Shown here: positions 5,770-33,417 of the stretch, piece by piece
How the letters are laid out: every line of letters begins with the position of its first letter
How positions within the stretch are numbered: position 1 is the first letter of the stretch
NCBI GenBank assembly: GCA_964629655.1
Contig: CAZVQU010000002.1
Coordinates: 162,814 to 226,813 of the forward strand
Reading direction: 5' to 3'
Length of the DNA: 64,000 nucleotides
Source: an uncultured Planctomycetia bacterium
Lineage (GTDB): Bacteria; Omnitrophota; Gorgyraeia; Duberdicusellales; 4484-171
Position numbers and translations under genes: made by a program
The notes under the pieces: model-generated
What the model was told of the DNA's origin: nothing
The model's database searches: none
Seen by the model: only the letters and a program-made list of their open reading frames with translations

Positions 5770-6141
5770 TTATTGTTCTCCTAAAAGTTCCTTAATTTTT
5801 GAAAGTAATACCTGAGGCTCAAAAGGCTTTGTTATATAGGCATCTGCTCCTACCTGAGCACCCATCTCCTTATCTGAAGCTTGAGCCCGAGCAGTAAAGA
5901 GAATTATCGGAATGCTCTTATACTTCTCATCAAACTTAAGCATCCGGCAGACCTTATACCCGTCTAATTTGGGTAGCATTAAATCCAGCACTATCAAATC
6001 GGGGTTCTCAGCCCTTGCCTTATCTACAGCTTCCTGCCCATCGTAAGCAGATAAAACTTTATATCCACTAGCTTCAAGCCGCATCTTTAGCATCTCAACT
6101 AATTGAACCTCATCGTCAACCACTAAAATTCTTTTTGCCAT
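5770..6141 (-). CDS. CheY-like single-domain response regulator (paralog 4 of 4)
   Basis: 123 aa REC-only protein; DDE..D..K signature (VVDDE, LDLMLP, ILFTAR...KPF). Confidence 0.85.
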   Translation of the reverse strand: MAKRILVVDDEVQLVEMLKMRLEASGYKVLSAYDGQEAVDKARAENPDLIVLDLMLPKLDGYKVCRMLKFDEKYKSIPIILFTARAQASDKEMGAQVGADAYITKPFEPQVLLSKIKELLGEQ

Positions 6142-6165
6142 TATAGTATTTTCCTCCGGTACAGG

Positions 6166-6528
6166 CTAAACGTATCTTTTAATAAAATCTAATAACTCTT
6201 TTGTGTCAAATGGTTTGATGAAATAATCTGTTGAGCCTAAATCGTGTGTCTTAAACATAGTCTCTGTATCTCCTTTTGCCGTAAGCATCACTACCGGTGT
6301 ATGCTGAGTTTCTAAATCAGCTCTTAACCTGCGTAATACCTCAAATCCATCCATCTTTGGCATCATGATATCTAAAACAATCAGATCAGGCTTAAGGTCT
6401 TTGGCTTTCCCTAAGGCCTCTTCACCATCAGAGGCAGTACTGACTTCATAGCCTTCAGCTTCCAACCGCATCTTTAGCATCTCAACTAATTGGACTTCAT
6501 CGTCAACCACTAAAATTCTTCTTGCCAT
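6166..6528 (-). CDS. CheY-like single-domain response regulator (paralog 3 of 4)
   Basis: 120 aa REC-only protein; N-terminal 22 aa and ~70 nt nearly identical to paralog 4. Confidence 0.85.
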   Translation of the reverse strand: MARRILVVDDEVQLVEMLKMRLEAEGYEVSTASDGEEALGKAKDLKPDLIVLDIMMPKMDGFEVLRRLRADLETQHTPVVMLTAKGDTETMFKTHDLGSTDYFIKPFDTKELLDFIKRYV

Positions 6529-6545
6529 AACTACTCCTCACTTAA

Positions 6546-6917
6546 TTATTTCTTCAAAACCTTATCGACCATTAGCAATAACTTATCAGCCTCAAAAGGT
6601 TTAGCAATAAAAAGATTATCACCTATTTCTTCACTACCTTGGTTCTCGGTCATCCCATCAGCTAAGCAAGTTAAAAAGATAATTGGGATTTTAGAAAATT
6701 GATCGTCTTCCTTTAAAGCCGCACCTACCTCATTGCCAGCCATCTTTGGCATTACGATATCCAAGATGATCAAATCAGGCTTAAGGTCTTTAGCTTTCTG
6801 TAACCCCTCTTCACCATCAAAGGCAGTAATGACTTCGTAACCGTTGGCTTGAAGGCGCATCTTTAGCATAGTTACTAATTGAGGTTCGTCGTCAACTACT
6901 AAAACTCTTTTGGCCAT
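6546..6917 (-). CDS. CheY-like single-domain response regulator (paralog 2 of 4)
   Basis: 123 aa REC-only protein. Confidence 0.85.
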   Translation of the reverse strand: MAKRVLVVDDEPQLVTMLKMRLQANGYEVITAFDGEEGLQKAKDLKPDLIILDIVMPKMAGNEVGAALKEDDQFSKIPIIFLTCLADGMTENQGSEEIGDNLFIAKPFEADKLLLMVDKVLKK

Positions 6918-6942
6918 TTCACTCTCCTTATGATTTATTATA

Positions 6943-7314
6943 CTATACCTTTAAGCACTCGCTAATCTTATTTAGAAGGTCATCAGCGTCAAAAGGCTTC
7001 ACAACTAGATCATCAGCCCCGGCTTCCCTACACTTCTCGACTAAATCTTTATTGCCAGAAGCAGTAACCATGATTATTGGAATATCCTTTGCTTGGGCAT
7101 CGCTTTTAAGCTGACGGCAAAGTGACCAACCGTCAAGTTTGGGCATTACTATATCAAGAAGTATGAGGTCAGGTTTGCCCTCCTGAACCTTCTCTAATCC
7201 TTCCTCACCATCAGAAGCAGAAATCATCTCATAGCCGCTAGCCTGAAGTCGCATCCTCATCATGGTAACGAGTTCTTCCTCATCTTCAATAAGTAATATT
7301 TTCTTCTTACCCAT
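6943..7314 (-). CDS. CheY-like single-domain response regulator (paralog 1 of 4)
   Basis: 123 aa REC-only protein. Confidence 0.85.
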   Translation of the reverse strand: MGKKKILLIEDEEELVTMMRMRLQASGYEMISASDGEEGLEKVQEGKPDLILLDIVMPKLDGWSLCRQLKSDAQAKDIPIIMVTASGNKDLVEKCREAGADDLVVKPFDADDLLNKISECLKV

Positions 7315-15178: not shown

Positions 15179-18100
15179 CTAATCCTTCTTTTTGGCTTGT
15201 TCTTTTTCCTCGATTATTCTCTTAGCTATTTCTTTAGGAACTTGGGTGTATTTTTTAAAGTGCATAGAGCAATTAGCCCTTCCGCTGCTTAAAGAACGCA
15301 TATTAGTAGCATAACCGAACATCTCCGATAGTGGGGCCTCAGCCATGATTGTCTTTTGAGTCCCTTTAGTCTCCATGCCTAAAATCTTTCCTCGCTTAGA
15401 ACAGACATAACCGACAAGGTTGCTGGTATACTCATCAGGAGCATTTATCTCTAGCTCCATACAGGGCTCAAGCAATACTGGGTCACACTTCATAAAAGCG
15501 CTCTTAAAACAACTCCTGGCGGTTAGCTTAAAAGCTAACTCTGAAGAATCAACATCATGATAAGAACCATCAACTAATTTTACCTTTACGTCTACTACCG
15601 GATAGCCGGCACAAGGGCCCTGCTTCATGGCTTCAATAATTCCTTTTTCAACAGCCGGAATATAATTTCTTGGTATAACCCCACCGGTAATGGCATCTTC
15701 GAACTCAAAGCCTTCTCCGGGGGCATTCGGTGAGAGCTCAATCACCACATGGCCATATTGGCCCCGGCCTCCGGTCTGTTTTATATGTTTATACTCTTCA
15801 GTTATACTATTGAGTATTGCTTCTTTATAAGCTACCTTAGGCTGCCCAACAGTAGCGCTAACTTTGAATTCTTCTTTTAATCTATCTACAATTATCTCTA
15901 AATGCAATTCGCCCATCCCTGAGAGAATGGTCTCTGAAGTCTCCTCATCTATATGAGCCTTAAAGGTAGGGTCTTCCTCGGATAGCTTAGCTAAGCCTTT
16001 ACTTAATTTATCCTGTTCACTTCTGCTATCAGGTCTAATGCTGATTGAAATTACCGGTTCGGAGAATTCAATTGACTCTAAGATAATCGGGCTCTCCGGA
16101 TTGGTAAGGGTATCTCCGGTTAAAGTGCTACTTAAACCAACTACTGCTGCGATATCTCCGGTAAAAACAGCATCTAAGTTCTCACGTTGATTAGCATGCA
16201 TCTGGACAATTCTTCCAACCCTTTCCTTCTTCTCCTTAGTAGCATTGTATATATAAGTTCCGGCTTTTAGATATCCGGAGTAGACCCGGATATAGACTAA
16301 TTTACCAATATGTTGATCAGCCTGAATCTTAAAAGCTAAGGCTGAGAAAGGTTCCTGGTCTGATGGCTTACGCTGGAGCTTATTCTCTGAATCAGAAGCA
16401 TCATGTCCTTGTATTGGTGGAATATCTAAGGGTGAAGGAAGATACAGAGTTACCGCGTCAAGAAGACTCTGTACTCCTTTATTTTTAAAAGCTGAACCGC
16501 AAAGCACCGGAACAATCTTGCGGGCTATCGCCCCTTTGCGAATAGCTTTTTTTAATTCCTCTTCGGTAATTGACTTCTCATCTTTTAAGTACTTTTCAGT
16601 AAGAAGACTATCCTCAGCTGCCGCTTTCTCTAGAAGGGTATGCCGATACTTATCACAGGTATCTTTATATTCTTGAGGAATCTCTTCAACTTTGAAATCA
16701 TTTCCTAAAGTATCATCTTCGTAGACATAGGCTTTCATAGTAATAAGATCAATTACTCCTTTAAAATTCTCTTCAGCCCCAATCGGAATCTGTAAAGCTA
16801 AAGCATTAGCACCTAACTCTTTCTCAATACTCCCTAAAACCGCAAAAAAATCTGCACCCATGCGGTCCATCTTATTAACAAAAACAATTTTAGGTACCTC
16901 ATATTTATCAGATTGACGCCAGACCGTCTCTGATTGGGGCTCAACCCCTCCAACAGCACAGAAAACTGCTACTGCTCCATCTAAGACCCGTAAACTCCTC
17001 TCAACTTCAGCAGTAAAATCTACATGCCCGGGAGTGTCAATAATGCTAACCCGATAATCTCCCCAAATACAAGTAGTGGCAGCTGAAGTAATAGTAATCC
17101 CTCTCTCCTGTTCCTGTTTCATCCAGTCCATCTGGGCAGCACCATCATGAACCTCTCCGATCTTATGAGAACGGCCGGTATAAAAGAGAATCCTTTCGGT
17201 TAAGGTGGTCTTACCGGCATCAATATGGGCCATAATCCCGATATTTCGTAATTTAGCTAGGTCATTCTTTCTAACTAAAGGGGGCTCTTCTTTCCCTGCC
17301 TTTGGCGGGACTTCTCCTTCACTACGCTCAGGACTTTGCTCTGGTCGCTTTTTGGGCTTTTCCTTAACTTTCTCTTTAGACTCTTCTGCCTTAACCTCTT
17401 CTTTAGGTTTTTCTTCTTTCTTCTCTTCAACTACCTCTTGAGGCTTGGTAACCTCAGCTGCCAGTACTTCTTCTTTAACCTCGGAAGGAAGCACTTCTGC
17501 GGTCTTCTTCTCTTCCTCTTCTTTTGCCTTCTCTTGCTTAATGGAAACTTCAACTATTGGCTCTATGCCTTGTTCTTTAAGCTGATGAGCCAAACGCATC
17601 CGCTCTTTGTCTTTGGCCTCTATCTCTTTACTCCTCAGCTCTACTTCTTTCTTACTAATTTCTAAATGCTGCTTTAACTCCTCTTTTTCTTCAACTAAAC
17701 TATTGTACTCCTCTTTAGAAACCCAGCCGCTCTCCTTTTCTCTCTTCCTTAACTTTGCTACTTCTTCCTTCTGAGCCCGTAAATCACCTACTACCTTAAC
17801 CATCCTCTCGTCAGCAGATTTGATCTTTTTCTCTAAAGCTCCTCTTTCATCCTTTAAGCTCTTGATATTTCCCTCTAAAAGCTTTACTTCTCTGTGGGCA
17901 TCCGAGACATCCCTTTTTAGATTCACATTCTTAGTAAATTCCTGCTCTAATTGTTTTTCCTTATCGAGAAGACTCTTCCTAAGCTCTCGCTCCGGTCCTT
18001 TTTCTTTCTTTAAGAGCTTCTGCTGATAAGTGAGCCACTTTTTACTTTGCTTATCTTTCTCTCTTAGCTCAGCTTCTTTCTTCTTTAAGTTTTCTAGCTC

Positions 18101-18343
18101 CTTTTTCATAACAGAGCTGCGGACCTTAATTTTTTCTAAAGCGGCAAGCTCAGCCTTATAGTCAAAAACTTTTTTCCTTAAGGATTGACTCTTATCGGTT
18201 AGGTCTACGATTCTCTTCTCGATAGCCCGGACTTGAACTTTTTCTTTAGTCTTTTTCCTGGCATCTTTGGCATCTTCGCTGTTTAAGGAGTAGACAACAA
18301 GGACTATAGCTGAAGCAATAAGTATCGAGGCAAAAATAATCAT
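15179..18343 (-). CDS. Elongation factor G homolog fused to a ~365-aa N-terminal extension (TM helix + K/E-rich coiled coil)
   Basis: Residues ~366-1054 are a full EF-G ([33 protein letters not shown]-prime, domains II-V). Residues 1-365 are [20 protein letters not shown] (TM) followed by heptad-rich KE repeats. No in-frame ATG/GTG/TTG start precedes the EF-G core. Confidence 0.75.
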
Positions 18344-20060: not shown

Positions 20061-20777
20061 CTAACAGCTAGGACGAGTAAGATGTTTTTCTACGAATTCG
20101 GCAATTTTCTCTTGTTTCTCAGGAGTTATGTTGTGAAATTCTAAACCCATCCCTGGATAATCCTCAGACTGAATCTCTTCATCAGCTAGCCAAACCACCT
20201 TAACATCAGCTTCTATGGTTCCTGTCTGAGGTTGAAGATCCATCCGGGTAACTAATAACTCTCCTATCGAGAATATCTTGTTGCTAACTATAAATACTCC
20301 TTCGGCGCTTAAATTTACTATTTTACCCTCATGGAATGGTTCATCCTTAAGAAGTTTTTGTCTGTATTCAATAGCAGTATCAAAAGGTATCCGCTCGAAC
20401 CTCCTTCTTAAAGGATCCTGAGCTAAACGTTCCATCTCTCGCTCATGCTTAATCGCTTCTAAGGCTTGCTCTTCGCTAATATGAAATTTAAAGATTCTAT
20501 CCATGCCAACAATTGAGAATAGCCTCATTACATGCGAAGGAACATTATATAACTCAATTTTTCCCTTATGGTTTAAGACATTCTTATATATAACTGAAAT
20601 CAAAGACACTCCTACGTAATCGACTAAGTTTACGCTTTCAAAATTACAAATTATATCTTTAGCCTGGTGGTTGAGAACCCATCCTACAGTCTCAACAAAA
20701 TCTGAGGCATCAATACCAATGCTACCTTCTAACTCTAAGATTGCTACCCCTTCTTTTATTTTAATCTTAATTCTCAT
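20061..20777 (-). CDS. STAS (anti-sigma-factor antagonist SpoIIAA-like) domain fused to a C-terminal PilZ (c-di-GMP-binding) domain
   Basis: N-terminal STAS fold (EGVAILELEGSIGIDASDF...YVGVSLISVI); C-terminal PilZ with RRRFERIP (RxxxR) and VNLSAEG (D/NxSxxG); 238 aa; 4-nt overlap with uppP. Confidence 0.7.
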   Translation of the reverse strand: MRIKIKIKEGVAILELEGSIGIDASDFVETVGWVLNHQAKDIICNFESVNLVDYVGVSLISVIYKNVLNHKGKIELYNVPSHVMRLFSIVGMDRIFKFHISEEQALEAIKHEREMERLAQDPLRRRFERIPFDTAIEYRQKLLKDEPFHEGKIVNLSAEGVFIVSNKIFSIGELLVTRMDLQPQTGTIEADVKVVWLADEEIQSEDYPGMGLEFHNITPEKQEKIAEFVEKHLTRPSC

Positions 20778-21533: not shown

Positions 21534-22901
21534 TTAACCCTTTAAAAGAAGATAGCCTAGAAATCCCAAAACACCCAAACCAACGACTACGCATAAGTAC
21601 TCCAGAAAACCTGAATCATTCTTCTCTAATGGCGCCCCGTCAAGAGAATAAGATGTCTCTCCTGACGACTCCTGGCTCTCTTCAGCTTCCTCTAAAGGTA
21701 TTTCTTTTTCTTTCGACGCCGGTTCTTCCAATCCCTCTTCTTCAAGTTCTATAGCGGCTTCTGGTGAAGGTTCGGGCACCTCTTCGGCTTTTTTTACTTC
21801 CTTCTTTTCTTCTATTACCTCTTCCACCTTTTCCTCTTCCAAGGAAAGCTCTGCTTTCTCTTCCAAGGGAGGTTCGGCCTTGGCTTCTTCCTTATCCTGA
21901 ATGACAACAGGCTCTGCCTCTTGGGGTTTCTCTCCGGGGTCTCCCTTGCCTAGCTCAGGTTTTCCTAAGATATCATCAACCTTATCCAAAGAAGCTTCGA
22001 TGTCCTCTCCGGGGAAATACTCTATATCTTCTTCCTTCTCGCTTTCATCCTTCGGCTTCACTTCCAAGGACTCCCCTTGGCTTTGGTCCTCTTTAAGAGG
22101 AACTTGCTCTTCTCTAATCTCAGGAGTTTGCTCCGGTTGTTCTTCCTCTATCTCTCTGACTTCAGAAACTGGTATTTCTTCTTCCTTTATTTCTTCCGTT
22201 GCTTCTTCAGCCTTCTTCTCTTCCAAGGGAGGTTCGACCTTGGCTTCTTCCTTATCCTGAATGACAACAGGCTCTGCCTCCTGGGGTTTATCTCCGGGGT
22301 CTCCCTTGCCTAGCTCAGGTTTTCCTAAGATATCATCAACCTTATCCAAAGAAGCTTCGATGTCCTCTCCGGGGAAATACTCTATATCTTCTTCCTTCTC
22401 GCTTTCATCCTTCGGCTTCACTTCCAAGGACTCCCCTTGGCTTTGGTCCTCTTTAAGAGGAACTTGCTCTTCTCTAATCTCAGGAGTTTGCTCCGGTTGT
22501 TCTTCCTCTATCTCTCTGACTTCAGAAACTGGTATTTCTTCTTCCTTTATTTCTTCCGTTGCTTCTTCAGCCTTCTTCTCTTCCAAGGGAGGTTCGACCT
22601 TGGCTTCTTCCTTATCCTGAATGACAACAGGCTCTGCCTCCTGGGGTTTATCTTCCTCAAGAGAAGGCTTCGCCTCCTCTTTTACCTTTTCCTCTTCCGG
22701 AGAGAGAGATTCTGGCTGCGCTTGGGCAGAAACCTCTGCTGCTTCTTCAACTTCTGAAACTTTATCCATTAACTCGCCTAAAACTGTGCGGCAATCATGG
22801 CAAACGCAAAGATGCTCCTCTACCGTTTGGATTTCTTCCTCACTGGCAGTATGCTGGAAGTACCTAGGAATTACTCTCTTAATCTCTTCGCACTCCATCA
22901 A
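21534..22901 (-). CDS. Membrane-anchored anti-sigma factor-like protein: N-terminal zf-HC2 domain, ~380-aa acidic E/K/P-rich repetitive linker, C-terminal TM helix
   Basis: CEEIKRVIPRYF...EEHLCVCHDCRTVLGEL matches the zf-HC2 anti-sigma zinc finger; C-terminal LEYLCVVVGLGVLGFLGYLLL; contains 2.2 tandem copies of a 120-aa repeat. Confidence 0.65.
   Translation of the reverse strand: MMECEEIKRVIPRYFQHTASEEEIQTVEEHLCVCHDCRTVLGELMDKVSEVEEAAEVSAQAQPESLSPEEEKVKEEAKPSLEEDKPQEAEPVVIQDKEEAKVEPPLEEKKAEEATEEIKEEEIPVSEVREIEEEQPEQTPEIREEQVPLKEDQSQGESLEVKPKDESEKEEDIEYFPGEDIEASLDKVDDILGKPELGKGDPGDKPQEAEPVVIQDKEEAKVEPPLEEKKAEEATEEIKEEEIPVSEVREIEEEQPEQTPEIREEQVPLKEDQSQGESLEVKPKDESEKEEDIEYFPGEDIEASLDKVDDILGKPELGKGDPGEKPQEAEPVVIQDKEEAKAEPPLEEKAELSLEEEKVEEVIEEKKEVKKAEEVPEPSPEAAIELEEEGLEEPASKEKEIPLEEAEESQESSGETSYSLDGAPLEKNDSGFLEYLCVVVGLGVLGFLGYLLLKG
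21857..22653. repeat. Direct tandem repeat, 360-bp unit, 2.2 copies, ~99% identical, in-frame inside the anti-sigma-like gene
   Basis: Anchor CTTGGCTTCTTCCTTATCCTGAATGACAACAGGCTCTGCCTC recurs at 21879, 22239 and 22599 (period exactly 360). Copies differ by 2-3 SNPs; the third copy diverges at ~22654. Confidence 0.9.
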
Positions 22902-22979
22902 AAATATTATATCAAAGACAACGAATATTACAAGACGATAATTCCTACGATTTTTAAAAAAGGCAAAAAAGAGGGGTTT

Positions 22980-23648
22980 TCAGAGTGGTATTAAGTCGCA
23001 ATAATAAAAACGTTCATCCCGCAAGATGACTTCACCTAATTTATAAGGTATTTTTTCTTTGAATATCGGGCCATCATAAACAAAAGAGTGAAATTCGCCA
23101 TTCTCACCGCAGGGATCAATACTCACTGGAAGTTGAGATAGAAAATCCTGGTCAAATTCTCTACCCACGAACTCCTTTCCCAGAATTCTTGAATCAACGC
23201 AAGTGATAACCGCTTTAAAGCCTGAGGCTATGAAACTTTGAGCAAGAGATTTGGTATTTCTCTGCCACAAAGGAAAAATTGCCTTCAAACCTACTTTTGA
23301 TAGCTTATCCTCGCGATATTTGCGAATATCCTCTAAGAATATATCGCCAAAAGCTACTTGGAAAGCGCCGCTTTGCTTACATTCCTCTAAGGCCTTGCGC
23401 ATTTTTGTTTCATATTCCTGACTAGACCGGGCCTTTGAGATAAGTACTTTTTTCAGCTCAATCCCGATTGATACAGCTTGCTTCTCCAACAATGCTTCCC
23501 GGACACCATGCATGCTAATTCTACCGTAATCGTTAGTTACAGTTGTCAGGAGGGAAAAAATATCATAGTTTCCGCTTTTTTGGGCCTCATAGAAAGCCAT
23601 GGCACTGTCTTTACCACTACTCCAACAAAATAATATTCTTTGTTTCAT
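22980..23648 (-). CDS. PP-loop ATP pyrophosphatase of the Dph6/MJ0570 (DUF71, ATP_bind_4) family, paralog A
   Basis: N-terminal SSGKDS PP-loop, C-terminal ENGEFHSFVYDGPIF signature; 222 aa; last gene of the B12-riboswitch operon. Confidence 0.7.
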   Translation of the reverse strand: MKQRILFCWSSGKDSAMAFYEAQKSGNYDIFSLLTTVTNDYGRISMHGVREALLEKQAVSIGIELKKVLISKARSSQEYETKMRKALEECKQSGAFQVAFGDIFLEDIRKYREDKLSKVGLKAIFPLWQRNTKSLAQSFIASGFKAVITCVDSRILGKEFVGREFDQDFLSQLPVSIDPCGENGEFHSFVYDGPIFKEKIPYKLGEVILRDERFYYCDLIPL

Positions 23649-23672
23649 TTACGGTTTTAAGAATAACTTAAT

Positions 23673-25541
23673 CTAAAACGTATATTTTGCCCCCAGATAC
23701 CAGGAAAATTTAGGAGTCTGGTAACCATTTGCAAGTTCATAATCATCGCTAAGAATATTTTCGAATCTTAAAAATGTATTGAGCTTATCATTTACTTTAT
23801 AATTAAAATCAACACCGCCTAAAATGTATGATTTCAATTTTACGTTAGATGAATCCATCCTGTTGCCCACGTAAGAAACATTAGCAGATATATCTAATTT
23901 TTTAAAGGCAGTTTTTATTTTACAGGTTACCTTACTGTTTGGCCTGCGAGTAAGCCGTGTTCCATCGGATAATTTTTCTGTATCCATATGGGCGTAGGCT
24001 ACAGTTAAAGTTGTATTATCGCCAAGCAAATATTCAGCAAAGCTCTCAATACCGTAAATTCTTGCTTTTCCAGTATTTTTATACTCCCCAGCCCAAAGAC
24101 CGGTTGAAACCCATTCTATAGAATTTTTAATATGGGTATGAAAATAAGTTGAGCCAAGGATTAAATACTCACCTAGCTCTTGCTCAAAGCCTGCTTCATA
24201 ACTTTCTGACTCTTCGGGATTCAAATTTTCATTTCCATAACTACCATTAAAAAGTTGATAGAGTGACGGGGCCTTAAATCCTTCTCCAAAAGAACCTTTT
24301 AGTTTTGTACCAGTCCCTTCTATGGAATAACTCCCTGAGAGGCTAAAAGTATTATGTCTGTTAAATTGTGAGTGATCTTCCAAACGGAAAGATGCAGCGA
24401 GAAATAGATTGTCAATAGGCGTAAAAATGTTTTCTATATAATATCCTTTAGTATTCGCTGTCGTCTTTGGGCCAAGAGAAATTCCAAAAGCGCTATCCCT
24501 ACGACTTTCGCCAAGTTCTCTTAGATAATCAAAGCCAAAAACAATCTGGTCAAAATCACAAAGTTGGTAATCTCCCTGCCATTTTGCTTGATAAGTTTTA
24601 CCATTATTCCACCCATGTGTTGTCGCGCTTTGCCAATCCTTCCGATAAGTTCGTGTATACCCAAAAATTGCCTTGTAAGAAAAACGGTCCGATAATTGAT
24701 GTTTTAAATTTATTCCTCCAACTCCTTGGTAAAAATATGCATAATTGTCGCCATCATCCGTAGGTAAATAAGGAGGGATCCCACTATTTGCGTCGTATTC
24801 GTACTTAGCATACGTATAATCCACAAGCAATCCCACATCAATATCGTTAGTTAGTATATAATCAAGCCTTAACGAAGAATTCAAATTATAGTAGGGATCC
24901 TTTTCATGATTTCCGTCTTTATATTTGCTAGAATAAAACCCATTCACGTCAGCTCTTGATACAGACAAAGAATAGCTTAGTTTATCTATCTCACCCTGGG
25001 AGGAAAGCTTTTCGCGATAAGTTTGGTAACTTCCAAATTCTTGGGTATACGAGAGAGTCGGTTTACCCTGACCTTTACGCGTTATAAGGCTGACGGTTCC
25101 GCCAATGGAATCTGAACCATACAAAGAGCTATAAGGGCCCTTTGATACTTCTATTGTCTCAAGATTATCAAGTGACATATAGGTATACCCATAAAAATAA
25201 GCCGCGGTAACAATCGGATCGTATAATTTTATGCCATCAAGCAAAACCTGGGTATGCTCAGAATCAGCACCTCTTATGAAAACTCCGGTAATCCCGCCTA
25301 CTCCTCCGGAAGTGGAATAGCTTACGCTAGGAATACCCTTTATCGCGTCGGTTAAAGTAAAAACCCCCTTGTCATTTAACCCTTCGGCCGAAATCACATC
25401 GGTTGACGAAGGATCCTGGGAAACGCTTACCCCTATCCTGTAAGGGGTAACTACAATTCCTTCTAACTCAATTGCTTCTTGAGCACTACAAAGCTGAACC
25501 GGGATAATTCCTAAAAGAAGAATAAGAAACTTTTTAATCAT
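23673..25541 (-). CDS. btuB: TonB-dependent outer-membrane receptor, BtuB-like (cobalamin/corrinoid)
   Basis: Signal peptide, TonB box GIVVTPY, plug domain (FIRGADSEHTQVLLDGIKL), 22-strand barrel ending in aromatic terminal YTF; 622 aa; in B12-riboswitch operon. Confidence 0.75.
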   Translation of the reverse strand: MIKKFLILLLGIIPVQLCSAQEAIELEGIVVTPYRIGVSVSQDPSSTDVISAEGLNDKGVFTLTDAIKGIPSVSYSTSGGVGGITGVFIRGADSEHTQVLLDGIKLYDPIVTAAYFYGYTYMSLDNLETIEVSKGPYSSLYGSDSIGGTVSLITRKGQGKPTLSYTQEFGSYQTYREKLSSQGEIDKLSYSLSVSRADVNGFYSSKYKDGNHEKDPYYNLNSSLRLDYILTNDIDVGLLVDYTYAKYEYDANSGIPPYLPTDDGDNYAYFYQGVGGINLKHQLSDRFSYKAIFGYTRTYRKDWQSATTHGWNNGKTYQAKWQGDYQLCDFDQIVFGFDYLRELGESRRDSAFGISLGPKTTANTKGYYIENIFTPIDNLFLAASFRLEDHSQFNRHNTFSLSGSYSIEGTGTKLKGSFGEGFKAPSLYQLFNGSYGNENLNPEESESYEAGFEQELGEYLILGSTYFHTHIKNSIEWVSTGLWAGEYKNTGKARIYGIESFAEYLLGDNTTLTVAYAHMDTEKLSDGTRLTRRPNSKVTCKIKTAFKKLDISANVSYVGNRMDSSNVKLKSYILGGVDFNYKVNDKLNTFLRFENILSDDYELANGYQTPKFSWYLGAKYTF

Positions 25542-25593
25542 ACCTGCCTCCGCTTAAATTGTGATTAACCTACCAGTATAATTTCACTCAGAC

Positions 25594-26307
25594 TTAAGAA
25601 ACGTCTATGAACCAATAACCGTCTTTTAAAACCTTTTGTTTTATCTCCAGATGCAGCGGCGAAGTAAAAATCGGACCGTCAGTAACAACACTATGAAACT
25701 CTCCGTTTTCACCACAGATATCAACACCGGCGACTTCCAACTGGTTAATTAAATCAGTGTCTATGTTTTTGCCTAAAAATCTTCTATCTAAAGAGTTTTC
25801 TTTAACAGCAATGATTGTAGCCTTAAATCCATCTTTGAGAAACTGCTTTAGAATCAAACCACGGGGTTTCTGCCAAAGAGGATGGTAGGCCTTAACCTGG
25901 GAATAAGAACATGCCTTTTCTACCCACTGACGGTGAGATTCGATATCGATGTCACCGAAAACACCGGTTTTAATTCCCTGCTCTTTGAGTTTGCCAAGGG
26001 CTGAGATGAAAACTGTCTCATAATTTATCCAGGAAGCAGCATGAAAAATCACCGGAATACCTAAAGCTGCCGCTTGCTTCTTAATCAGCCTAGTGCTTAA
26101 GCCATGAGACCGGGACCGCTTGCCGTCTTCAGTCAACATTGTTAAGAGCAGAGCCGGTTTGCCCCATTTTTTGATTGCATAATGCAGAGCCAGGCAACAA
26201 TCCTTTCCGCCACTCCATGAGCAGAAAAAAGAACGGCCTTTAGTTGGCCTTCTGCTCTTTTTAGCGATATCCTTTGTTTTACACAGAGTTAATTTTGCTA
26301 ACATCAT
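25594..26307 (-). CDS. PP-loop ATP pyrophosphatase of the Dph6/MJ0570 (DUF71) family, paralog B
   Basis: WSGGKDC PP-loop, C-terminal ENGEFHSVVTDGPIF; 237 aa; 4-nt overlap with upstream ABC ATPase gene. Confidence 0.7.
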   Translation of the reverse strand: MMLAKLTLCKTKDIAKKSRRPTKGRSFFCSWSGGKDCCLALHYAIKKWGKPALLLTMLTEDGKRSRSHGLSTRLIKKQAAALGIPVIFHAASWINYETVFISALGKLKEQGIKTGVFGDIDIESHRQWVEKACSYSQVKAYHPLWQKPRGLILKQFLKDGFKATIIAVKENSLDRRFLGKNIDTDLINQLEVAGVDICGENGEFHSVVTDGPIFTSPLHLEIKQKVLKDGYWFIDVS

Positions 26308-27092
26308 TTTCCCTTAGAAACTAGTATTACGTAAGGCTTGGCAGAAATAGGATTTTCTTTCACTACCACAACAGTCTTGTACACAGATTCGATATTCTGA
26401 TAAGTCAGAACCGAAGCAGGTTCGCCATCCTTAAATATCTCTCCCTGATTAAGCAAAATAAGCCGGTTGCAATATTCACTAGCTAAATTTAAATCATGCA
26501 TAACTAAAATTATAGTAAGTTTGGTCTCCTGATTCAGTCTTTTTAATAAATCCAATATCTGTATCTTGTGCCCAATATCTAAGTGCGAAGTAGGCTCATC
26601 CAATAACAAGAGAATCGGCTCTTGGGCTAGAGCCTTAGCAATAATAACCCTCTGACGCTCTCCGGCGCTTAACTGATTTATTTGTTTAGCTTCCAGATGC
26701 AGTGAATCTGTCGACGAAAGAGCTTTCTTGGCAATTGCTAAATCTTTACTACTCTCAAATTGAAGCCTCTTAAGATGGGGGGTTCTCCCCAAAAGTGCAA
26801 TCTCCCAAACAGTAAATGAGAAATTAATCAAAGTCTCTTGAGGAACAAAGGCAATTTTCCGGCAAAGTTCTTTAAGCTTTATCTTACTTATATCTTTATC
26901 CTCAAAAACCACGCTTCCCCCCCGAGGGCAGAGAGCCTTGCTAATCAACTTAAGCAAGGTAGATTTACCTGAGCCGTTAGGGCCGATTATTCCTAAAAAA
27001 TCACCTTTCCCTACCTCAAACGAAACATCATTTATTACCAATTTTTGATCGTAGGCTCCGGATAAATTATCTACTTTTAGCAAAATGCTCAT
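26304..27092 (-). CDS. btuD: ABC transporter ATP-binding protein, BtuD/FecE family
   Basis: Walker A GPNGSGKST, signature LSAGERQRV, Walker B LLLDEP; 262 aa. Confidence 0.8.
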   Translation of the reverse strand: MSILLKVDNLSGAYDQKLVINDVSFEVGKGDFLGIIGPNGSGKSTLLKLISKALCPRGGSVVFEDKDISKIKLKELCRKIAFVPQETLINFSFTVWEIALLGRTPHLKRLQFESSKDLAIAKKALSSTDSLHLEAKQINQLSAGERQRVIIAKALAQEPILLLLDEPTSHLDIGHKIQILDLLKRLNQETKLTIILVMHDLNLASEYCNRLILLNQGEIFKDGEPASVLTYQNIESVYKTVVVVKENPISAKPYVILVSKGK

Positions 27093-27095
27093 AGA

Positions 27096-28058
27096 CTACT
27101 TGATTTTTTGTTCTCTTCTCAATAAAAATATAAAAATTGGTGCTCCAACTAAAGATGTAATGACTCCAATCGAAATTTCAACCGGCGAAAAAAGACTGCG
27201 TGCTAAGGTATCTGATAAAATTAAGAATGCAGCTCCCGATAAGCAAGACGCGGGGATAAGAACCTTATGATTGGGGCCGACAACCATTCGCATCATATGG
27301 GGAATAATCAATCCGACAAATCCGATTATCCCGGTAATTGAAACTAAGGCTCCGGTAATTAAGGCAGTGGTGACGAATAATATTTTCTTCACTGTCTCAA
27401 CCTCAATACCTAAATGAACAGCCTCTTCCTCGCCAAGGCTTATCGCATTTAAATCCTGGAAAAGAATAAAAATCGGTATAATCCCTAAACAAACTATACT
27501 GCCGACTATTAAAAGAAGTTTAAAATTGTAGACTTCCAGACTTCCCAATAACCACCAAAGTATTCCACGCAAAGCCTGATTGTTTGATATCGATACCAAA
27601 AACACGATTAGCCCTGAGATAGCTATCGCCACAATTACTCCTGATAAAATAAGTGACTGAACCGAAATTCTTCCATTTTGCTTAGCAAGGTTATATACTA
27701 AAATAATACTTAATAAGGCTCCGATGAAGGCAACTAAAGGAATTAGACTAATCGAAAGCCCGAAGAATATTCCCAAAGCAGCACCAAGCCCAGCTCCGCT
27801 TGAAGTCCCTAATAAATAGGGTTCGGCGAGCGGGTTTCGTAAAATTGCTTGTAATACCGCTCCTGAGACACCTAAACCAGCTCCAGCGAATAACCCCAAC
27901 ATAATTCTTGCTAAACGTAATTGCAAAATATTCCGGTTGGCTTGAGAGAACAACTCTCCCAAAGGAATCTTTACTGAACCATAATAAACTCCTAAGGCTA
28001 TACTAGCTAAGAGGATTAAAAATAATATTAGAAGTTTTTTCCGGTTATTTACGTTCAT
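27096..28058 (-). CDS. btuC: ABC transporter permease, FecCD/BtuC family
   Basis: 320 aa, ~9 TM helices, FecCD-family conserved Gly-rich segments. Confidence 0.8.
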   Translation of the reverse strand: MNVNNRKKLLILFLILLASIALGVYYGSVKIPLGELFSQANRNILQLRLARIMLGLFAGAGLGVSGAVLQAILRNPLAEPYLLGTSSGAGLGAALGIFFGLSISLIPLVAFIGALLSIILVYNLAKQNGRISVQSLILSGVIVAIAISGLIVFLVSISNNQALRGILWWLLGSLEVYNFKLLLIVGSIVCLGIIPIFILFQDLNAISLGEEEAVHLGIEVETVKKILFVTTALITGALVSITGIIGFVGLIIPHMMRMVVGPNHKVLIPASCLSGAAFLILSDTLARSLFSPVEISIGVITSLVGAPIFIFLLRREQKIK

Positions 28059-28906
28059 TCTGGATACAGCCTCTTATGAATTGCCTCCAGACCTTCGACT
28101 AACCTCGGTCCGGGCCGGAAAAAAAGATTGGGGTCGATATCCCGATAGATACGGTTATTCTTTACGGCCGCAATATTTCCCCAACCTAACCGGCTTCCAA
28201 TCTTAAGTGCATCCGGATTCTTATTCATATACCCGAGAATAATGCAGTCGGGATTACGCTCTAGGACTTGTTCACTGCTAAAATAGCTGTAGCTTCTAGG
28301 AAGATCACTGGCTATATTTATACCCCCGGCTAAACTAATCAACTCACCTACAAAAGACCCACTACCGGCAGTCATTAAAGGATCGACCCCAATTTCAATA
28401 AATACGCTTAGCCGCTTGGCTTGGGGAATAAGTTTAACCTTATCGTTAATCCGTTCAATCCTCTCCTCCATTTGCCTAATTAGTAATTCGGCCTTTTGCT
28501 CTCGATGAATAAGCTTTGCGATTTCCCTTATCGAACTAAATAGCTCTTTAAAACTTGCCGGGTCGCTAACGAAAACTTTCATACCAAGTCTGCGTAAATC
28601 ATCGACTATCGAAGCTTGTTCCAGGCCGGTAGCAAAAACTATATCCGGTTTTAAAAAGACAATTTTTTCGATACTCGGCTGGCTAAAAGTACCCGCCTTT
28701 TCCTTAGCCTTGGCCTTAGGCGGATAATTACAGAATGTACTTACCCCGACAATCTCATCATCGAGCCCTAAACGGAATAATATTTCGGTTACCGACGGAG
28801 CAATTGAAACAACCCTCTGTTTGGGAACCGCCTGCGAAAGTAGTGGCCTGGGGCCAAAACAGATAAGTATGACTACTAAGCTGCTGAGTAAAATATTCTT
28901 TCTCAT
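28055..28906 (-). CDS. btuF: Periplasmic corrinoid-binding protein, BtuF-like (class III SBP); start reassigned to internal Met
   Basis: VVSIAPSVTEILFRLGLDDEIVGVSTFCNYPP...KPDIVFAT matches BtuF. ORF-track start 29011 would place a terminator hairpin inside the CDS, so the ATG at 28906 (MRKNILLSSLVVILICFG signal peptide) is preferred. Confidence 0.7.
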   Translation of the reverse strand: MRKNILLSSLVVILICFGPRPLLSQAVPKQRVVSIAPSVTEILFRLGLDDEIVGVSTFCNYPPKAKAKEKAGTFSQPSIEKIVFLKPDIVFATGLEQASIVDDLRRLGMKVFVSDPASFKELFSSIREIAKLIHREQKAELLIRQMEERIERINDKVKLIPQAKRLSVFIEIGVDPLMTAGSGSFVGELISLAGGINIASDLPRSYSYFSSEQVLERNPDCIILGYMNKNPDALKIGSRLGWGNIAAVKNNRIYRDIDPNLFFRPGPRLVEGLEAIHKRLYPE

Positions 28907-28942
28907 CTCTAAAATAAAAAATCCCCGACTGTTATGTCGGGG
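28907..28942 (-). terminator. Riboswitch expression-platform terminator (attenuator)
   Basis: Minus strand CCCCGAC-ATAACA-GTCGGGG (7-bp GC-rich stem) immediately followed by ATTTTTTATTTT, ending 1 nt before the btuF start codon. Confidence 0.6.
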
Positions 28943-29014
28943 TGCACCCTCTTTTCTTGGCCCGGAAATAAAAAATTTTAGGTTATTATTCCGCGTAAAA
29001 CCTAAATTCAATTC

Positions 29015-29195
29015 TTCTCGGCAGGTCTTCTGACTCTCTCACTTTTCCTAGCGGTCTTCCCATCAGCCTCAAGCTGATAGTGACACGAAGTGCTAAGAAA
29101 ATTTTCCTGGCTTATGCCTAGGGTGGGATTACAGCACCGGGAGTGTCTCCGATTCTCACGGAGTTCCCTATTATGCCTTACGGCACCGAAAAAAA
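29015..29195 (-). ncRNA. Cobalamin (adenosylcobalamin) riboswitch aptamer
   Basis: Minus strand reads CGGTGCCGTAAGGCATAATAGGGAACTCCGTGAGAATCGGAGACACTCCCGGTGCTGTAA...AAGCCAGGAAAA...AGAAGACCTGCCGAG. This matches the conserved cobalamin-riboswitch core (AATAGGGAA / GTGAGAATC / CCGGTGCTGTAA) and B12 box (AGCCAGGA...GAAGACCTGCC), upstream of a btu operon. Confidence 0.75.
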
Positions 29196-29223
29196 TAATC
29201 CTTAACTCCCAAAGAACAACTTT

Positions 29224-29251
29224 ATTCTATCTTTACCGACTATCTTGTCAA
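29224..29251 (-). promoter_or_regulatory. Putative sigma-70 promoter of the riboswitch/btu operon
   Basis: Minus strand TTGACA (29251-29246), 16-nt spacer, TAGAAT (29229-29224), ~25 nt upstream of the aptamer. Confidence 0.4.
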
Positions 29252-29262
29252 CATTTTTATCA

Positions 29263-29335
29263 TGCGCCCGGGCCGACTCGAACAGCCACATCAGCCTTAG
29301 GAGGGCCGCGCTCTATCCTGTTGAGCTACGGGCGC
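29263..29335 (-). tRNA. tRNA-Arg (anticodon CCU)
   Basis: 73-nt cloverleaf found by eye: acceptor GCGCCCG/CGGGCGC, D-arm GCTC-AACAGGATA-GAGC, anticodon arm CGGCC-CUCCUAA-GGCUG (CCU), 4-nt variable loop, T-arm GGCTG-TTCGAGT-CGGCC, discriminator A, no encoded CCA. Confidence 0.85.
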
Positions 29336-30720: not shown

Positions 30721-33417
30721 CTATTTTTTACTCCTGCCTTTTTCTTGTATTGCTATTTGAGCAGCAGCTAGCCTGGCAATCGGAACCCGATAGGGGGAAC
30801 AGCTAACGTAATTTAAGCCGGCTTTGTGGCAAAATTTAACCGACTTCGGATCTCCTCCGTGCTCTCCGCATATACCGCATTTAAGTTTCTTATTTGTTTT
30901 TCTGCCTAAGTCTACGGCTGTTTTTAAAAGCTGGCCTACGCCCTCCTGATCAATTGTCTGAAATGGATCATCGGGTAGAATTTTCTTCTCTATATATTCC
31001 GGTAGAAAAACTCCGGCATCATCGCGGCTATAACCAAAGGTCATCTGGGTAAGGTCATTTGTCCCAAAAGAGAAAAATTCAGCCTTTGCCGCAACCTTAT
31101 CAGCAGTTAATGCTGCCCGAGGAATTTCAATCATTGTTCCTACCGTATATTTTACATTTGATTTCGATTTACTAATAATGCTCTTGGCAGCTTTTCGAAC
31201 AATTTCTTCCAGATAGTCAAATTCGTTAACTGTGCCAATAAGCGGAATCATAATCTCAGGAATAACCTTAATTCCCGCCTTGGCCACATTACAAGCTGCT
31301 TCGATTATCGCTGTTGTCTGCATCAGGCAAAGTTCAGGATAAGTAATCGACAATCTACAACCGCGATGGCCGAGCATCGGGTTTAACTCGTGTAGCTTCT
31401 TAACAAGATCCTCTACCTTTGCCGGTGAGATTTTCAAACGCTTAGCCATTTCTTTTTGCCCGTCTGGATCATTAGGCAAAAATTCATGCAGCGGCGGATC
31501 GAGAAGCCGTATTGTCACCGGAAGCCCATTCATCTCCTTAAAAATCCCCTCAAAGTCTTTTCTCTGGTAAGGTAACAATTTCTTAAGAGCTTTCTCTCTT
31601 GTTTTGCTATCCTGGGCTAGAATAAACTCACGAACAGCCCAAATCCTCTCTCCTTCAAAAAACATATGTTCAGTTCTGGTAAGACCAATACCTTCAGCGC
31701 CTAATCTCCGAGCTGCCATTGAATCTTTAGGTGTGTCAGCGTTAGTACGAACTTTAAGTGTTCGGTATTGATCTGCCCATTTCATTGTCTGAATAAACAT
31801 CTTGTAAATTGGACTCTTCTTAGCCCGAGGATTATTTTCAACAACTCCGGCAATTACCGGGCTGGTTGTCGACTTCACATCGCCGAGCATAACCTCTCCG
31901 GTTGCACCGTTTAGGGAAAGATAATCGCCCTCCTTGACTATGACTCCTTCAACCGATATCTGTTTTTTAGAGTAGTTAATATTTAAAGCGCTGCATCCGG
32001 CGATACAACACTTACCCCAACCTCTGGCAACTACAGCTGCATGTGAAGTCATTCCACCGGTTGAGGTCAATATTCCCTCAGCAGCATCCATTCCGGCTAC
32101 ATCCTCCGGAGAGGTCTCATGGCGGACAAGAATAACCTTTTTCCCCTTCTTCTTCCAGGCTTCTGCATCATCAGCTGTGAATACCACATGCCCTGAAGCA
32201 GCACCCGGTCCAGCCGGAAGGCCCTTGGCTACCTTTTTAGCTTTACTGGCAGCTACAGGGTCAAAAATCGGAAAGAGAAGCTGATTAAGCTGTTCACCCT
32301 CAATCCGCAGGAGAGCTTCTTGAGCTGTAATCATTTTTTCTCCTACCATATCGTATGCAATCTTAACTGCTGCAAGCCCGGTACGTTTACCGGTACGTGT
32401 CTGAAGCATAAAAAGCCTGCCTTCCTGTATGGTAAATTCTACATCCTGTATATCTCTATAGTGTTTCTCAAGTTTTTTTCTTATATCATCGAGTTGTTTA
32501 TAAATTTTCGGCATTTCCTTTTTAAGATCATTTATAGGCTCAGGAGTCCTTATCCCGGCTACTACATCTTCACCCTGAGCGTTAATAAGAAACTCGCCAA
32601 AAAATTCATTATCTCCGGTTGAAGGATTACGGGTGAAGGCTACTCCGGTTCCGGAAGTATTACCCATATTCCCAAAAACCATTGTTTGAACATTAACTGC
32701 TGTACCAAGAAGTCCGGTAATTTTATTTATTCTTCTGTAAATTACGGCTCTCTCAATATTCCATGAGCCAAATACCGCGTTAACTGCAGACATTAGCTGT
32801 TTTTTTGCGTCAGTCGGAAAAGGTTTCTTTACATATCTCTTATATACATCCTTATACTGACCGACTAGTTCTTTAAGCTGAACAACTGTAAGGTCATTAT
32901 CTTGTTTTGCTCTATATTTTTTCTTAATAGCTGTTAATTTTTCTTCAAAATGCTCATGGTCGACTCCCATAACAACATTTCCGAACATATCAATAAAGCG
33001 TCGATAAGCATCCCAGGCAAGGCGTTGATTGCCGGTTTTCTTTGCAAGACCGATTACTGCATCATCATTTAACCCAAGATTAAGAACAGTATCCATCATC
33101 CCCGGCATTGAGACTGCGGCACCGCTGCGCACTGAAACCAGCAAAGGATTCTTAGAATCCCCCAACTTTGCGCCCATGCTTTTCTCTAACATAGCAATAT
33201 TAGCATCTATTTGTTTTTGTAGCTCAGAAGGATATTTCCTTCCATGTTTATAGTAGTAGTCACAAACTTCGGTTGAAATTGTGAATCCCGGAGGCACCGG
33301 AACTCCGATACTGCACATCTCAGCTAGATTTGCACCTTTGCCGCCTAGAATATTCTTCATTGTAGCGTTACCATCAGATTTTCCCTTGCTGAAAAAATAT
33401 ACAAATTTTTTAGCCAT
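30721..33417 (-). CDS. ppdK: Pyruvate, phosphate dikinase
   Basis: 898 aa; N-terminal ATP-grasp (MKNILGGKGANLAEM), central phospho-His domain (GGMTSHAAVVARGWGKCCI), C-terminal PEP-utilizing TIM barrel. Confidence 0.9.
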   Translation of the reverse strand: MAKKFVYFFSKGKSDGNATMKNILGGKGANLAEMCSIGVPVPPGFTISTEVCDYYYKHGRKYPSELQKQIDANIAMLEKSMGAKLGDSKNPLLVSVRSGAAVSMPGMMDTVLNLGLNDDAVIGLAKKTGNQRLAWDAYRRFIDMFGNVVMGVDHEHFEEKLTAIKKKYRAKQDNDLTVVQLKELVGQYKDVYKRYVKKPFPTDAKKQLMSAVNAVFGSWNIERAVIYRRINKITGLLGTAVNVQTMVFGNMGNTSGTGVAFTRNPSTGDNEFFGEFLINAQGEDVVAGIRTPEPINDLKKEMPKIYKQLDDIRKKLEKHYRDIQDVEFTIQEGRLFMLQTRTGKRTGLAAVKIAYDMVGEKMITAQEALLRIEGEQLNQLLFPIFDPVAASKAKKVAKGLPAGPGAASGHVVFTADDAEAWKKKGKKVILVRHETSPEDVAGMDAAEGILTSTGGMTSHAAVVARGWGKCCIAGCSALNINYSKKQISVEGVIVKEGDYLSLNGATGEVMLGDVKSTTSPVIAGVVENNPRAKKSPIYKMFIQTMKWADQYRTLKVRTNADTPKDSMAARRLGAEGIGLTRTEHMFFEGERIWAVREFILAQDSKTREKALKKLLPYQRKDFEGIFKEMNGLPVTIRLLDPPLHEFLPNDPDGQKEMAKRLKISPAKVEDLVKKLHELNPMLGHRGCRLSITYPELCLMQTTAIIEAACNVAKAGIKVIPEIMIPLIGTVNEFDYLEEIVRKAAKSIISKSKSNVKYTVGTMIEIPRAALTADKVAAKAEFFSFGTNDLTQMTFGYSRDDAGVFLPEYIEKKILPDDPFQTIDQEGVGQLLKTAVDLGRKTNKKLKCGICGEHGGDPKSVKFCHKAGLNYVSCSPYRVPIARLAAAQIAIQEKGRSKK

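Follow-up and report, generated by a model that had tools for sequence, protein, structure and literature searches.

Two DUF71 lineages in a riboswitch-controlled corrinoid uptake operon of an uncultured Omnitrophota bacterium

Why should an operon for the uptake of corrinoids, the vitamin B12 family, carry two genes for PP-loop ATPases related to the diphthamide enzyme Dph6? The question is raised by a 64-kb stretch of contig CAZVQU010000002.1 (64,000 nucleotides, hereafter the window) from a Candidatus Omnitrophota bacterium, in which a cobalamin riboswitch precedes the genes of a BtuFCD-type importer and a BtuB-like receptor, and two members of the DUF71 family, here called copy A and copy B, stand among them. 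The two copies belong to two old DUF71 subfamilies with different preferred neighbours. They share a single B12 locus in three to four phyla, and both genes are still present in a syntenic relative where another membrane protein takes the place of the importer. We consider it probable that the pair processes corrinoids, and more tentatively propose that it amidates them.

The association of DUF71 with B12 has been known since 2012, when de Crecy-Lagard, Forouhar, Brochier-Armanet, Tong and Hunt (Biol Direct 2012 7:32; PMC3541065) split DUF71 (COG2102) into Dph6 and a DUF71-B12 subgroup. In that paper, 75 of 102 DUF71-B12 genes lie beside btuCDF and 18 of 102 beside cbiB, and the subgroup has the signature ENGEF/YH, with His for Glu188 of Dph6, the Dph6 motif being EGGE/DxE. 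It further reports that nearly all CbiB-encoding genomes have CbiZ or DUF71-B12 and that the two are strictly anti-correlated in bacteria, cautiously proposes a part in pseudo-B12 salvage, CbiZ-like or other, and already notes a "cluster 3" lacking B12 linkage. The supplementary table of the paper lists genomes with two to five DUF71-B12 copies, its taxonomic table lacks Omnitrophota, and recurrent co-occurrence of A and B in one B12 locus was not found in the sections covered. A 2016 review by the same group still describes DUF71-B12 as "function unknown, B12 salvage", and the literature searched on DUF71-B12, COG2102 and PP-loop enzymes with cobamides yielded nothing beyond the 2012 paper and works that cite it. 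The idea that the DUF71-btu context is unrecognised does not stand, the subgroup, its motif and a predicted role in B12 salvage having been published; the remark of an earlier note on this DNA that no such role is established holds as far as experiment is concerned, but the space of hypotheses was already in print. What is added here is the distinction between A and B, their recurrence as a pair, the exchange of the transporter, and a cultured carrier.

The operon and its control

The elements of the locus are as follows, from upstream to downstream.

29263..29335, minus strand: tRNA-Arg(CCU), upstream boundary of the operon
29224..29251, minus strand: promoter-like site, sigma-70-like TTGACA-16-TAGAAT (consensus scan, 11/12 matches)
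29003..29205, minus strand: cobalamin riboswitch aptamer, RF00174 (cmscan)
28913..28942, minus strand: expression platform, a G+C-rich hairpin with a U tract, intrinsic-terminator-like (terminator scan)
28055..28906, minus strand: BtuF-like periplasmic corrinoid-binding protein (Peripla_BP_2 PF01497, 3.3e-39)
27096..28058, minus strand: BtuC-like FecCD-family ABC permease (PF01032, 1.1e-86)
26304..27092, minus strand: BtuD-like ABC ATPase (ABC_tran PF00005, 6e-33)
25594..26307, minus strand: DUF71 copy A, DUF71-B12-type PP-loop ATP pyrophosphatase (PF01902, 1.5e-41)
23673..25541, minus strand: BtuB-like TonB-dependent outer-membrane receptor (Plug and TonB_dep_Rec_b-barrel)
22980..23648, minus strand: DUF71 copy B, clade-B subfamily, last gene of the operon (PF01902, 5.3e-38)

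The riboswitch matches its Rfam model over the full length (positions 1-189 of 189; 89.6 bits against a gathering score of 31.5; E 8.1e-21). Between the tRNA gene and the aptamer lies the promoter-like site, a consensus match of a kind that is no more frequent in the region than in shuffled sequence. Downstream of the aptamer, the hairpin CCCCGAC...GUCGGGG (28942..28923) has a 7-bp stem with 6 G-C pairs and the tail AUUUUUUAUU; it is present in both the minimum free energy and the centroid folds, and the platform stops 7 nt before the btuF ATG at 28906. A riboswitch with such a terminator platform is predicted to shut the operon off when corrinoid is plentiful. The mechanically called open reading frame (ORF) of btuF, from a TTG at 29011, overruns the riboswitch and terminator; the true start is almost certainly the ATG at 28906, behind which the N-terminus is signal-peptide-like.

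On the minus strand the genes run from the btuF-like gene through the FecCD permease, the ABC ATPase and copy A to the BtuB-like receptor and copy B. Their junctions range from 4-nt overlaps (btuF/btuC, and btuD/A, where the start of copy A overlaps the btuD stop in ATGA) and a 3-nt gap (btuC/btuD) to gaps of 24 nt (btuB/B) and 52 nt (A/btuB), and the terminator scan found no convincing terminator within the operon. That copy B lies outside the operon is less likely, in view of the 24-nt gap, the lack of a terminator and the conserved btuB-B pair; the gene downstream has a promoter-like site of its own at 22933..22906. All the elements listed in the earlier note lie where it placed them, on the minus strand, and its picture of tightly joined genes in a riboswitch-controlled corrinoid uptake operon with two DUF71/MJ0570-family PP-loop enzymes is confirmed by the Rfam and Pfam matches and by the junction coordinates.

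The make-up of a BtuFCD-type importer is present, as binding protein, FecCD permease and ABC ATPase are encoded together and all have strong Pfam matches. Models for B12 proteins are the best or near-best NCBIfam matches and all stay below their equivalog cutoffs: BtuF NF002894 for the binding protein (125 bits, cutoff 234), BtuC models for the permease (258 and 236 bits, both under their cutoffs, 258 against 461), a corrinoid ABC transporter ATPase for the BtuD-like protein (248 bits, cutoff 537), and TonB-B12 TIGR01779 for the receptor, the top of 27 families (271.6 bits, cutoff 599.7). The corrinoid specificity of the transporter is for this reason taken from the riboswitch. Homologues of the receptor come after cobalamin riboswitches in several of the loci described below, among them L168, L170 and L038. 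Components and logic are those of the E. coli type, in which an AdoCbl (adenosylcobalamin)-class aptamer represses the uptake genes BtuB/BtuFCD. E. coli has separate uptake loci and translational control of btuB, whereas the window has one predicted transcript, a terminator platform and two extra cytoplasmic enzymes.

Two proteins, two lineages

PF01902 is the only Pfam family found in either copy, at 142.8 bits for A and 131.2 for B against a gathering score of 23.2. Copy A has the PP-loop SGGKDC and copy B, at residues 9-15, SSGKDS; the motif GENGEFH is common to both, and B has in addition CGENGEFHSFVYDGPIF and RFYYCDL. The ATP-site residues named in PMC3541065 are kept, namely SGGKD, a His (His68 in A, His47 in B) and the Ser after the motif His. 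With the ENGEF/YH motif, the clustering with B12 genes and a place in the tree among bacterial sequences, both copies fit the published DUF71-B12 subgroup. Neither has a signal peptide, and both are predicted to be cytoplasmic.

The AlphaFold2 model of copy A (pLDDT, the predicted local distance difference test, 89.5) has a predicted Dph6-like two-domain fold. Its best Foldseek matches are the Dph6 orthologues PH1257 and PF0828 (2d13, 3rk1; template modelling (TM) score 0.80-0.85), behind which other PP-loop enzymes follow at a distance. Residues 1-22 are disordered in the model, and may not be translated. The model of copy B is poor (pLDDT 65.7, below 50 in the C-terminal domain, from a shallow alignment). 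Among the relatives, solved structures exist only for the Pyrococcus Dph6 orthologues, which are about 26-30% identical to A and B.

Is one copy then simply a duplicate of the other? The two are 38% identical, and for either there are thousands of closer homologues (at 53-65% identity in the case of A and 61-76% in that of B), which rules out a recent tandem duplication. A neighbour-joining tree of 175 DUF71 sequences from 167 loci, rooted on two Pyrococcus Dph6 orthologues and distinct from the published tree, places both copies among bacterial sequences and apart from the Pyrococcus Dph6. The clade of copy B has a bootstrap of 95/100 in a 67-sequence subsample, a mean identity of 54% and the near-invariant motifs DR[IV]SMHGVR, FGDIFLED, CGENGEFHSFVYDGPIF and RFYYCDL; the A-like assemblage is more diffuse, with 40% mean identity and the motifs RSRSHGL, GVFGDIDxExH and GExGE[FY]H. 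The word "paralogous" in the earlier note needs the qualification that the copies come from separate, old subfamilies and did not arise by local duplication. The 2012 paper treats DUF71-B12, which shares with the window proteins the PF01902 PP-loop fold, ENGEF/YH, bacterial origin and btuFCD/cob clustering, as one unit, whereas here two deep lineages with different neighbours stand behind a single riboswitch (PMC3541065).

Domain fusions were also considered as a clue to function and discarded, most over-long ORFs being upstream-extension artefacts in high-GC contigs. One apparently genuine DUF71 fusion, to DUF7661, is uninformative, and a non-B12 Paenibacillus DUF71 protein (L059) has an N-terminal extension that looks GrpB-like by eye only.

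The company of DUF71 genes in other genomes

To what extent does the context of the window recur? The census covered 80 loci of GTDB species genomes, taken in order of their similarity to A, 80 metagenome contigs for clade B and 10 loci around named homologues (numbers with L); the 160 loci scanned in the two collections are those that scored best among more than 585 matches in each. Neighbourhoods, not whole genomes, were scanned with the Btu proteins of the window, annotated cob markers and a riboswitch search, the latter with Rfam on 24 loci and with a home-made nhmmer profile and a three-anchor regular expression on all. In 16 B12-linked loci, profile and pattern recovered all Rfam cobalamin-clan matches but one, an AdoCbl-II riboswitch in L065 that was added by hand, and they gave nothing in the 8 Rfam-negative loci. 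Rfam itself confirmed riboswitches in 7 of 8 and 7 of 8 of the B12-linked loci checked.

In the 2.0 Mb around 167 DUF71 homologues from elsewhere, every one of the 50 cobalamin riboswitch matches (50/50) lies on the DUF71 strand, and the association of DUF71 with B12 riboswitches therefore goes beyond chance. B12 markers (btu or cob genes, or a riboswitch) accompany 22 of 54 A-like loci and 10 of 10 B loci in the GTDB set, and 8 of 17 informative metagenomic B loci, all with at least 12 kb of flank; these fractions are lower bounds, and by a rough estimate of our own a few per cent of random 20-kb windows would be expected to have such markers. The earlier note had made enrichment near btu genes or B12 riboswitches its deciding test, and the census finds that enrichment. 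After the Btu proteins, the commonest neighbours are CobU (13 loci), CobT (11), CobS (11) and DUF6580 (10), followed by a CobC-like phosphatase (8), CbiB (3) and a CobD-type aminotransferase (3).

The two lineages differ in the company they keep, A-type genes standing with cobU, cobT, cobS, cobC or cobQ and with inner-membrane transporters, B-type genes with btuB. A-type genes are found in cobU-A-cobT-cobS-cobC clusters of Bacteroidota (L041, L042, L049-L051), with no cbiB within 10 kb in the flavobacterial ones, in btuB-A-cobU-cobT-cobS-cobC-B (L038), in btuFCD-cbiB-cobD-cobT-cobS-A-cobU of a Dehalococcoidia metagenome-assembled genome (MAG; L017), and as btuFCD-A(-cobU) in L078 and in Thermanaeromonas (L172). 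A compact salvage or remodelling cluster of an Ardenticatenales MAG (L006:393-6179) reads cobQ-A-cobT-cobS-(AP_endonuc_2/xylose-isomerase-like TIM barrel)-cobU, and the AP_endonuc_2 protein in it is of the superfamily to which the cobamide-remodelling CbiR belongs. In L006 and L016 the A-type gene is translationally coupled to full-length cobQ (cobyric acid synthase), in L027 to a glutaminase-less CobQ-like ATPase, and in L055 and L061 it comes after a glutaminase-less AsnB-type amide synthetase. B-type genes follow btuB directly, in most cases in the order riboswitch-btuB-B, and DUF6580 often comes next. This riboswitch-btuB-B arrangement occurs in many acidobacterial contigs (L074, L081, L134-L164) and in the window's own lineage, and the btuB-B pair recurs in Omnitrophota, Acidobacteriota, Ignavibacteriales and Bacteroidota. 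Some A-like subgroups had no B12 context in the census, namely those of Acinetobacter, Paenibacillus, Bacillaceae and beta-proteobacteria (Janthinobacterium).

In two further loci (L097:2578-6859 and L129), a cobalamin riboswitch stands in front of three genes, which encode a DUF4465 protein of 603 amino acids, a protein bearing a prepilin-type N-methylation motif and a clade-B DUF71 enzyme; btu genes were not detected there. DUF4465 may be a B12-binding surface protein.

A recurrent pair and an exchanged transporter

The cultured Roseivirga thermotolerans (L037) has the six genes of the window in another order, riboswitch-btuF-C-D-btuB-A-B. A and B also share a B12 locus in Reichenbachiella (L038) and in Flavivirga and Tamlana (L024, L034), and in a MAG of Acidobacteria gp6 (L065), where an AdoCbl-II riboswitch is followed by A-btuD-btuC-btuF-B-btuF and A overlaps btuD by 4 nt. 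A Pirellulaceae MAG (L011) probably has the pair as well, its B gene being a mere fragment at the contig end, and a Chloroflexia MAG has two B-like copies.

The clearest view of how the pair is kept comes from a syntenic Omnitrophota relative (L168), where the genes to either side of the locus are those of the window and the order between them is tRNA-A-DUF6580-riboswitch-btuB-B: btuFCD has been exchanged for DUF6580, both DUF71 genes are kept, and the riboswitch stands before btuB. Another locus, L170, is arranged in the same way. DUF6580 (PF20221), about 170-195 amino acids long, is a membrane protein with invariant His and Cys residues (L168:9725-10231, L170:125-712), and it adjoins clade-B DUF71 genes in 18 loci, including L151-L162 and many acidobacterial btuB-B contigs. 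It had no match in PDB, BtuM included (phmmer and profile searches), and none in NCBIfam, and the literature search on it surfaced only the 2012 DUF71 paper and citations of that paper. On the strength of its gene context, DUF6580 is a candidate inner-membrane corrinoid transporter.

What might the two enzymes do to corrinoids?

Could they simply be Dph6, the diphthine-ammonia ligase (EC 6.3.1.14)? Homologues in NCBI bacterial MAG records are indeed named "diphthine--ammonia ligase", and the best NCBIfam model of the two copies is Dph6_archaeal. With Dph6/MJ0570/PF0828 they share the fold (TM about 0.8 to copy A), the ATP-site residues and probably the adenylation chemistry. They differ in having a His for the catalytic Glu, in EF-2-binding (elongation factor 2) residues that are unconserved (PMC3541065), and in an identity of only about 26-30%. 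Their scores against the archaeal Dph6 model TIGR03679 (105.4 bits for A, 96.9 for B) fall well short of the equivalog cutoff (197.3), ENGEFH stands in place of EGGE/DxE, and bacteria are without EF-2 diphthamide (PMC3541065). Identity with Dph6 is thereby effectively refuted.

That the A/B pair processes corrinoids is, as said, probable; that both enzymes carry out an ATP-dependent amidation of corrinoid carboxylates is proposed with somewhat less than even confidence. Amidation is favoured because it is the only known chemistry of the family, the one characterised reaction being that of Dph6 (carboxylate and NH3 to amide; PMC3541065 and the title of PMC3585130), and because A-type genes have the cobQ, CobQ-like and AsnB-type neighbours described above. 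The earlier note had suggested a re-amidation of incompletely amidated corrinoids, an idea to which these neighbours lend some circumstantial weight. Both enzymes would act in the cytoplasm on imported corrinoids. Each would adenylate a carboxylate (ATP to AMP and pyrophosphate), as Dph6 and other PP-loop amide synthetases do, and ammonia would turn the acyl-adenylate into an amide. The substrates would be the free-acid side chains of the corrin ring, present in precursors whose amidation is incomplete or in B12 analogues that are deamidated and inactive, and the products a usable cofactor or cobinamide. Two non-redundant enzymes would serve different side-chain positions or substrates, like CbiA/CbiP in de novo synthesis, and amidation is also favoured because two such enzymes are natural if different positions need serving. 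As no cbiB accompanies the flavobacterial cobU-A-cobT-cobS-cobC clusters, the product of A should enter there at the level of cobinamide and not of cobyric acid.

The likeness to CbiA/CobB and CbiP/CobQ lies in the class of reaction, from corrin carboxylate to carboxamide, and in the splitting of positions between two enzymes. Fold and energetics differ: CbiA/CobB and CbiP/CobQ join a dethiobiotin-synthetase-like ATPase to GATase_3, use glutamine and split ATP to ADP and phosphate, whereas the DUF71 enzymes would split ATP to AMP and pyrophosphate, probably with free ammonia. In its fullest form the proposal is that A and B are position-specific, ammonia-dependent corrinoid-carboxylate amide synthetases of a new branch of side-chain repair or completion, B being tied to import through BtuB/DUF6580 and A to the cobU/T/S/C assembly of the nucleotide loop, with DUF6580 as the transporter that replaces BtuFCD. 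In this full form it is a possibility that we regard as doubtful.

Several observations weigh against amidation, or against the operon as it is read here. Co-transcription is read from gene spacing only, and the 52 nt between A and btuB contain a weak promoter-like site (9/12). The PP-loop of the window's copy B is atypical, with SSGKDS in place of the SGGKDS of all its close relatives. Both copies have a His at the position of the catalytic Glu of Dph6 (E188), a substitution that was taken in 2012 as a sign of a changed reaction, and the strict anti-correlation with bacterial CbiZ points to a CbiZ-like role instead of amidation (both PMC3541065). The cobQ and AsnB-like neighbours of A-type genes are found in only 5 loci and may reflect general clustering of cob genes. 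The annotated ORFs of the 64-kb window include neither a further cob gene nor a B12-dependent enzyme. Most of the relatives closest to B (55-64% identity) stand alone without btu genes, and Rfam found a riboswitch in none of their 8 long loci, so the substrate of B may not be specific to salvaged corrinoids. Finally, the literature searched holds no biochemical or genetic data for any DUF71-B12 protein.

In the Acidobacteria gp6 locus L065, the clade-B gene shows the same Gly-to-Ser change in the PP-loop as copy B.

The reading favoured in 2012 is that of an enzyme analogous to CbiZ, which would open the f-propionate amide of pseudo-B12 or cobinamide at the expense of ATP and yield cobyric acid for CbiB. 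The amide carbonyl would be O-adenylated, and water would then attack the amide to the aminopropanol-nucleotide loop; adenylation of carbonyl oxygens is known from the PP-loop enzymes GMP synthetase, TilS and argininosuccinate synthetase. This reading accounts for the pattern reported in PMC3541065, where nearly all genomes with CbiB have CbiZ or DUF71-B12, the two anti-correlated, and 18 of 102 genes lie beside cbiB. It fits the Dehalococcoidia operon L017, in which A stands with cbiB, and the census as well: no CbiZ lies within 10 kb among the bacterial B12-linked loci, and the sole bacterial CbiZ (L054, a BtuD-CbiZ fusion) occurs with a non-B12 Paenibacillus-type DUF71 gene outside the operon. 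Nor was CbiZ seen in the 64-kb window, of which most ORFs were covered. CbiZ (PF01955) shares with DUF71-B12 the type of operon (btuFCD with cbiB/cobU/cobT/cobS), and the two are reported to exclude each other in bacteria (PMC3541065), but it has no kinship of sequence or fold with DUF71 and is independent of ATP. As A and B fall outside PF01955 and match only PF01902 in Pfam, any CbiZ-like role would be one of analogy and not of homology. However, the cob clusters of A-type genes mostly have cobU without cbiB (13 against 3 loci), and L006 already pairs A with a CbiR-like remodelling gene, which makes A itself unlikely to be the enzyme that removes the lower ligand there. We know of no PP-loop enzyme that acts as a net amidohydrolase, and the keeping of two different DUF71 enzymes would stay unexplained; a CbiZ analogue is judged unlikely.

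Adenylation might also serve another end, such as the ligation of cobyric acid with free aminopropanol or ethanolamine, by which a soluble enzyme would circumvent CbiB and supply CobU with cobinamide, or an attack by some nucleophile other than ammonia. Among the cob neighbours of A-type genes the most frequent is CobU (13 loci), which is often directly adjacent and whose kinase activity only cobinamide requires, and the change from Glu to His at the catalytic position suggests an altered chemistry. Yet A shares an operon with both cbiB and cobD in L017 and L083, and so is no simple replacement of CbiB, and such a reaction is without precedent in the family; we hold it to be quite improbable. 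About equally hard to credit is the idea that one or both enzymes, B especially, perform a housekeeping reaction unrelated to corrinoids and hitch-hike in btu operons. The isolated closest relatives of B, on Nitrospirota-, Desulfobacterota- and other-type contigs with unrelated neighbours and 8 of 8 long loci Rfam-negative, speak for it, as do the lack of a B12 marker in about half or more of the informative A-like and metagenomic B loci and the Acinetobacter, Paenibacillus, Bacillaceae and Janthinobacterium subgroups, all unlinked. It is countered by the btuB-B pair, often with DUF6580 and with a riboswitch in front, that recurs across four lineages, by the retention of B when the inner-membrane transporter is exchanged, by the strand of the riboswitches (50/50), and by the mean identity of 54% within clade B, which suggests one substrate throughout. 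Amidation of corrinoid side chains, at the tentative strength given above, is the reading retained, and part of the probability is assigned to none of the readings named.

Other features of the window

Directly downstream of the operon (21534-22901, minus strand) lies the gene of an extremely acidic, Glu/Pro/Lys-rich protein of 455 amino acids, which has an anti-sigma-type zinc finger (zf-HC2) at its N-terminus and a hydrophobic segment at its C-terminus; the gene contains a 360-bp tandem repeat (2.2 copies, 99% identity, 21856-22653), and the syntenic relative L168 has a shorter protein of 358 amino acids in its place. An EF-G-like protein of 1054 amino acids (15179-18343, minus strand) has five EF-G domains in residues 364-1042, preceded by some 360 residues with no Pfam match, and a counterpart of 1051 amino acids occupies the same position in L168. 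The pyruvate phosphate dikinase of the window (30721-33417) is 81-87% identical to proteins named from Omnitrophota, which places the organism in that phylum. Its best-scoring homologue (P0242) has 1317 amino acids and the intein/LAGLIDADG domains PF14890 and PF14528, and is an intein-containing pyruvate phosphate dikinase of a related uncultured organism. At 5770-7314 and 4638-5759 (both minus strand), four consecutive ORFs of about 120-123 amino acids, of which the one checked is a stand-alone response-regulator receiver, adjoin a response-regulator-EAL protein, a PAS/HAMP histidine kinase of 910 amino acids and a response-regulator-GGDEF protein. Together with a STAS-PilZ protein (20061-20777), they form a dense signalling cluster in which cyclic di-GMP is likely involved.

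What the pair may mean for B12 salvage

Cofactors of the B12 type are needed by most microbes and made by few, so that routes of salvage shape communities. The loci compared here hold at least two distinct DUF71-B12 enzymes, with different partners, that are kept together when the transporter is exchanged. Independently of amidation, hundreds of bacterial "diphthine-ammonia ligase" annotations carry the wrong name; the misnamed members span both lineages, are without the Dph6 catalytic motif and come from organisms without diphthamide, a propagated misannotation of the kind that PMC3541065 warned of. The presence of the same six genes in the cultured Roseivirga thermotolerans makes knock-outs and feeding experiments feasible. 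If amidation is true, corrinoid acids that are supposed to be inactive would count as usable vitamin, and a branch of side-chain repair or completion would allow auxotrophs to use the deamidated B12 analogues and incompletely amidated precursors of their environment.

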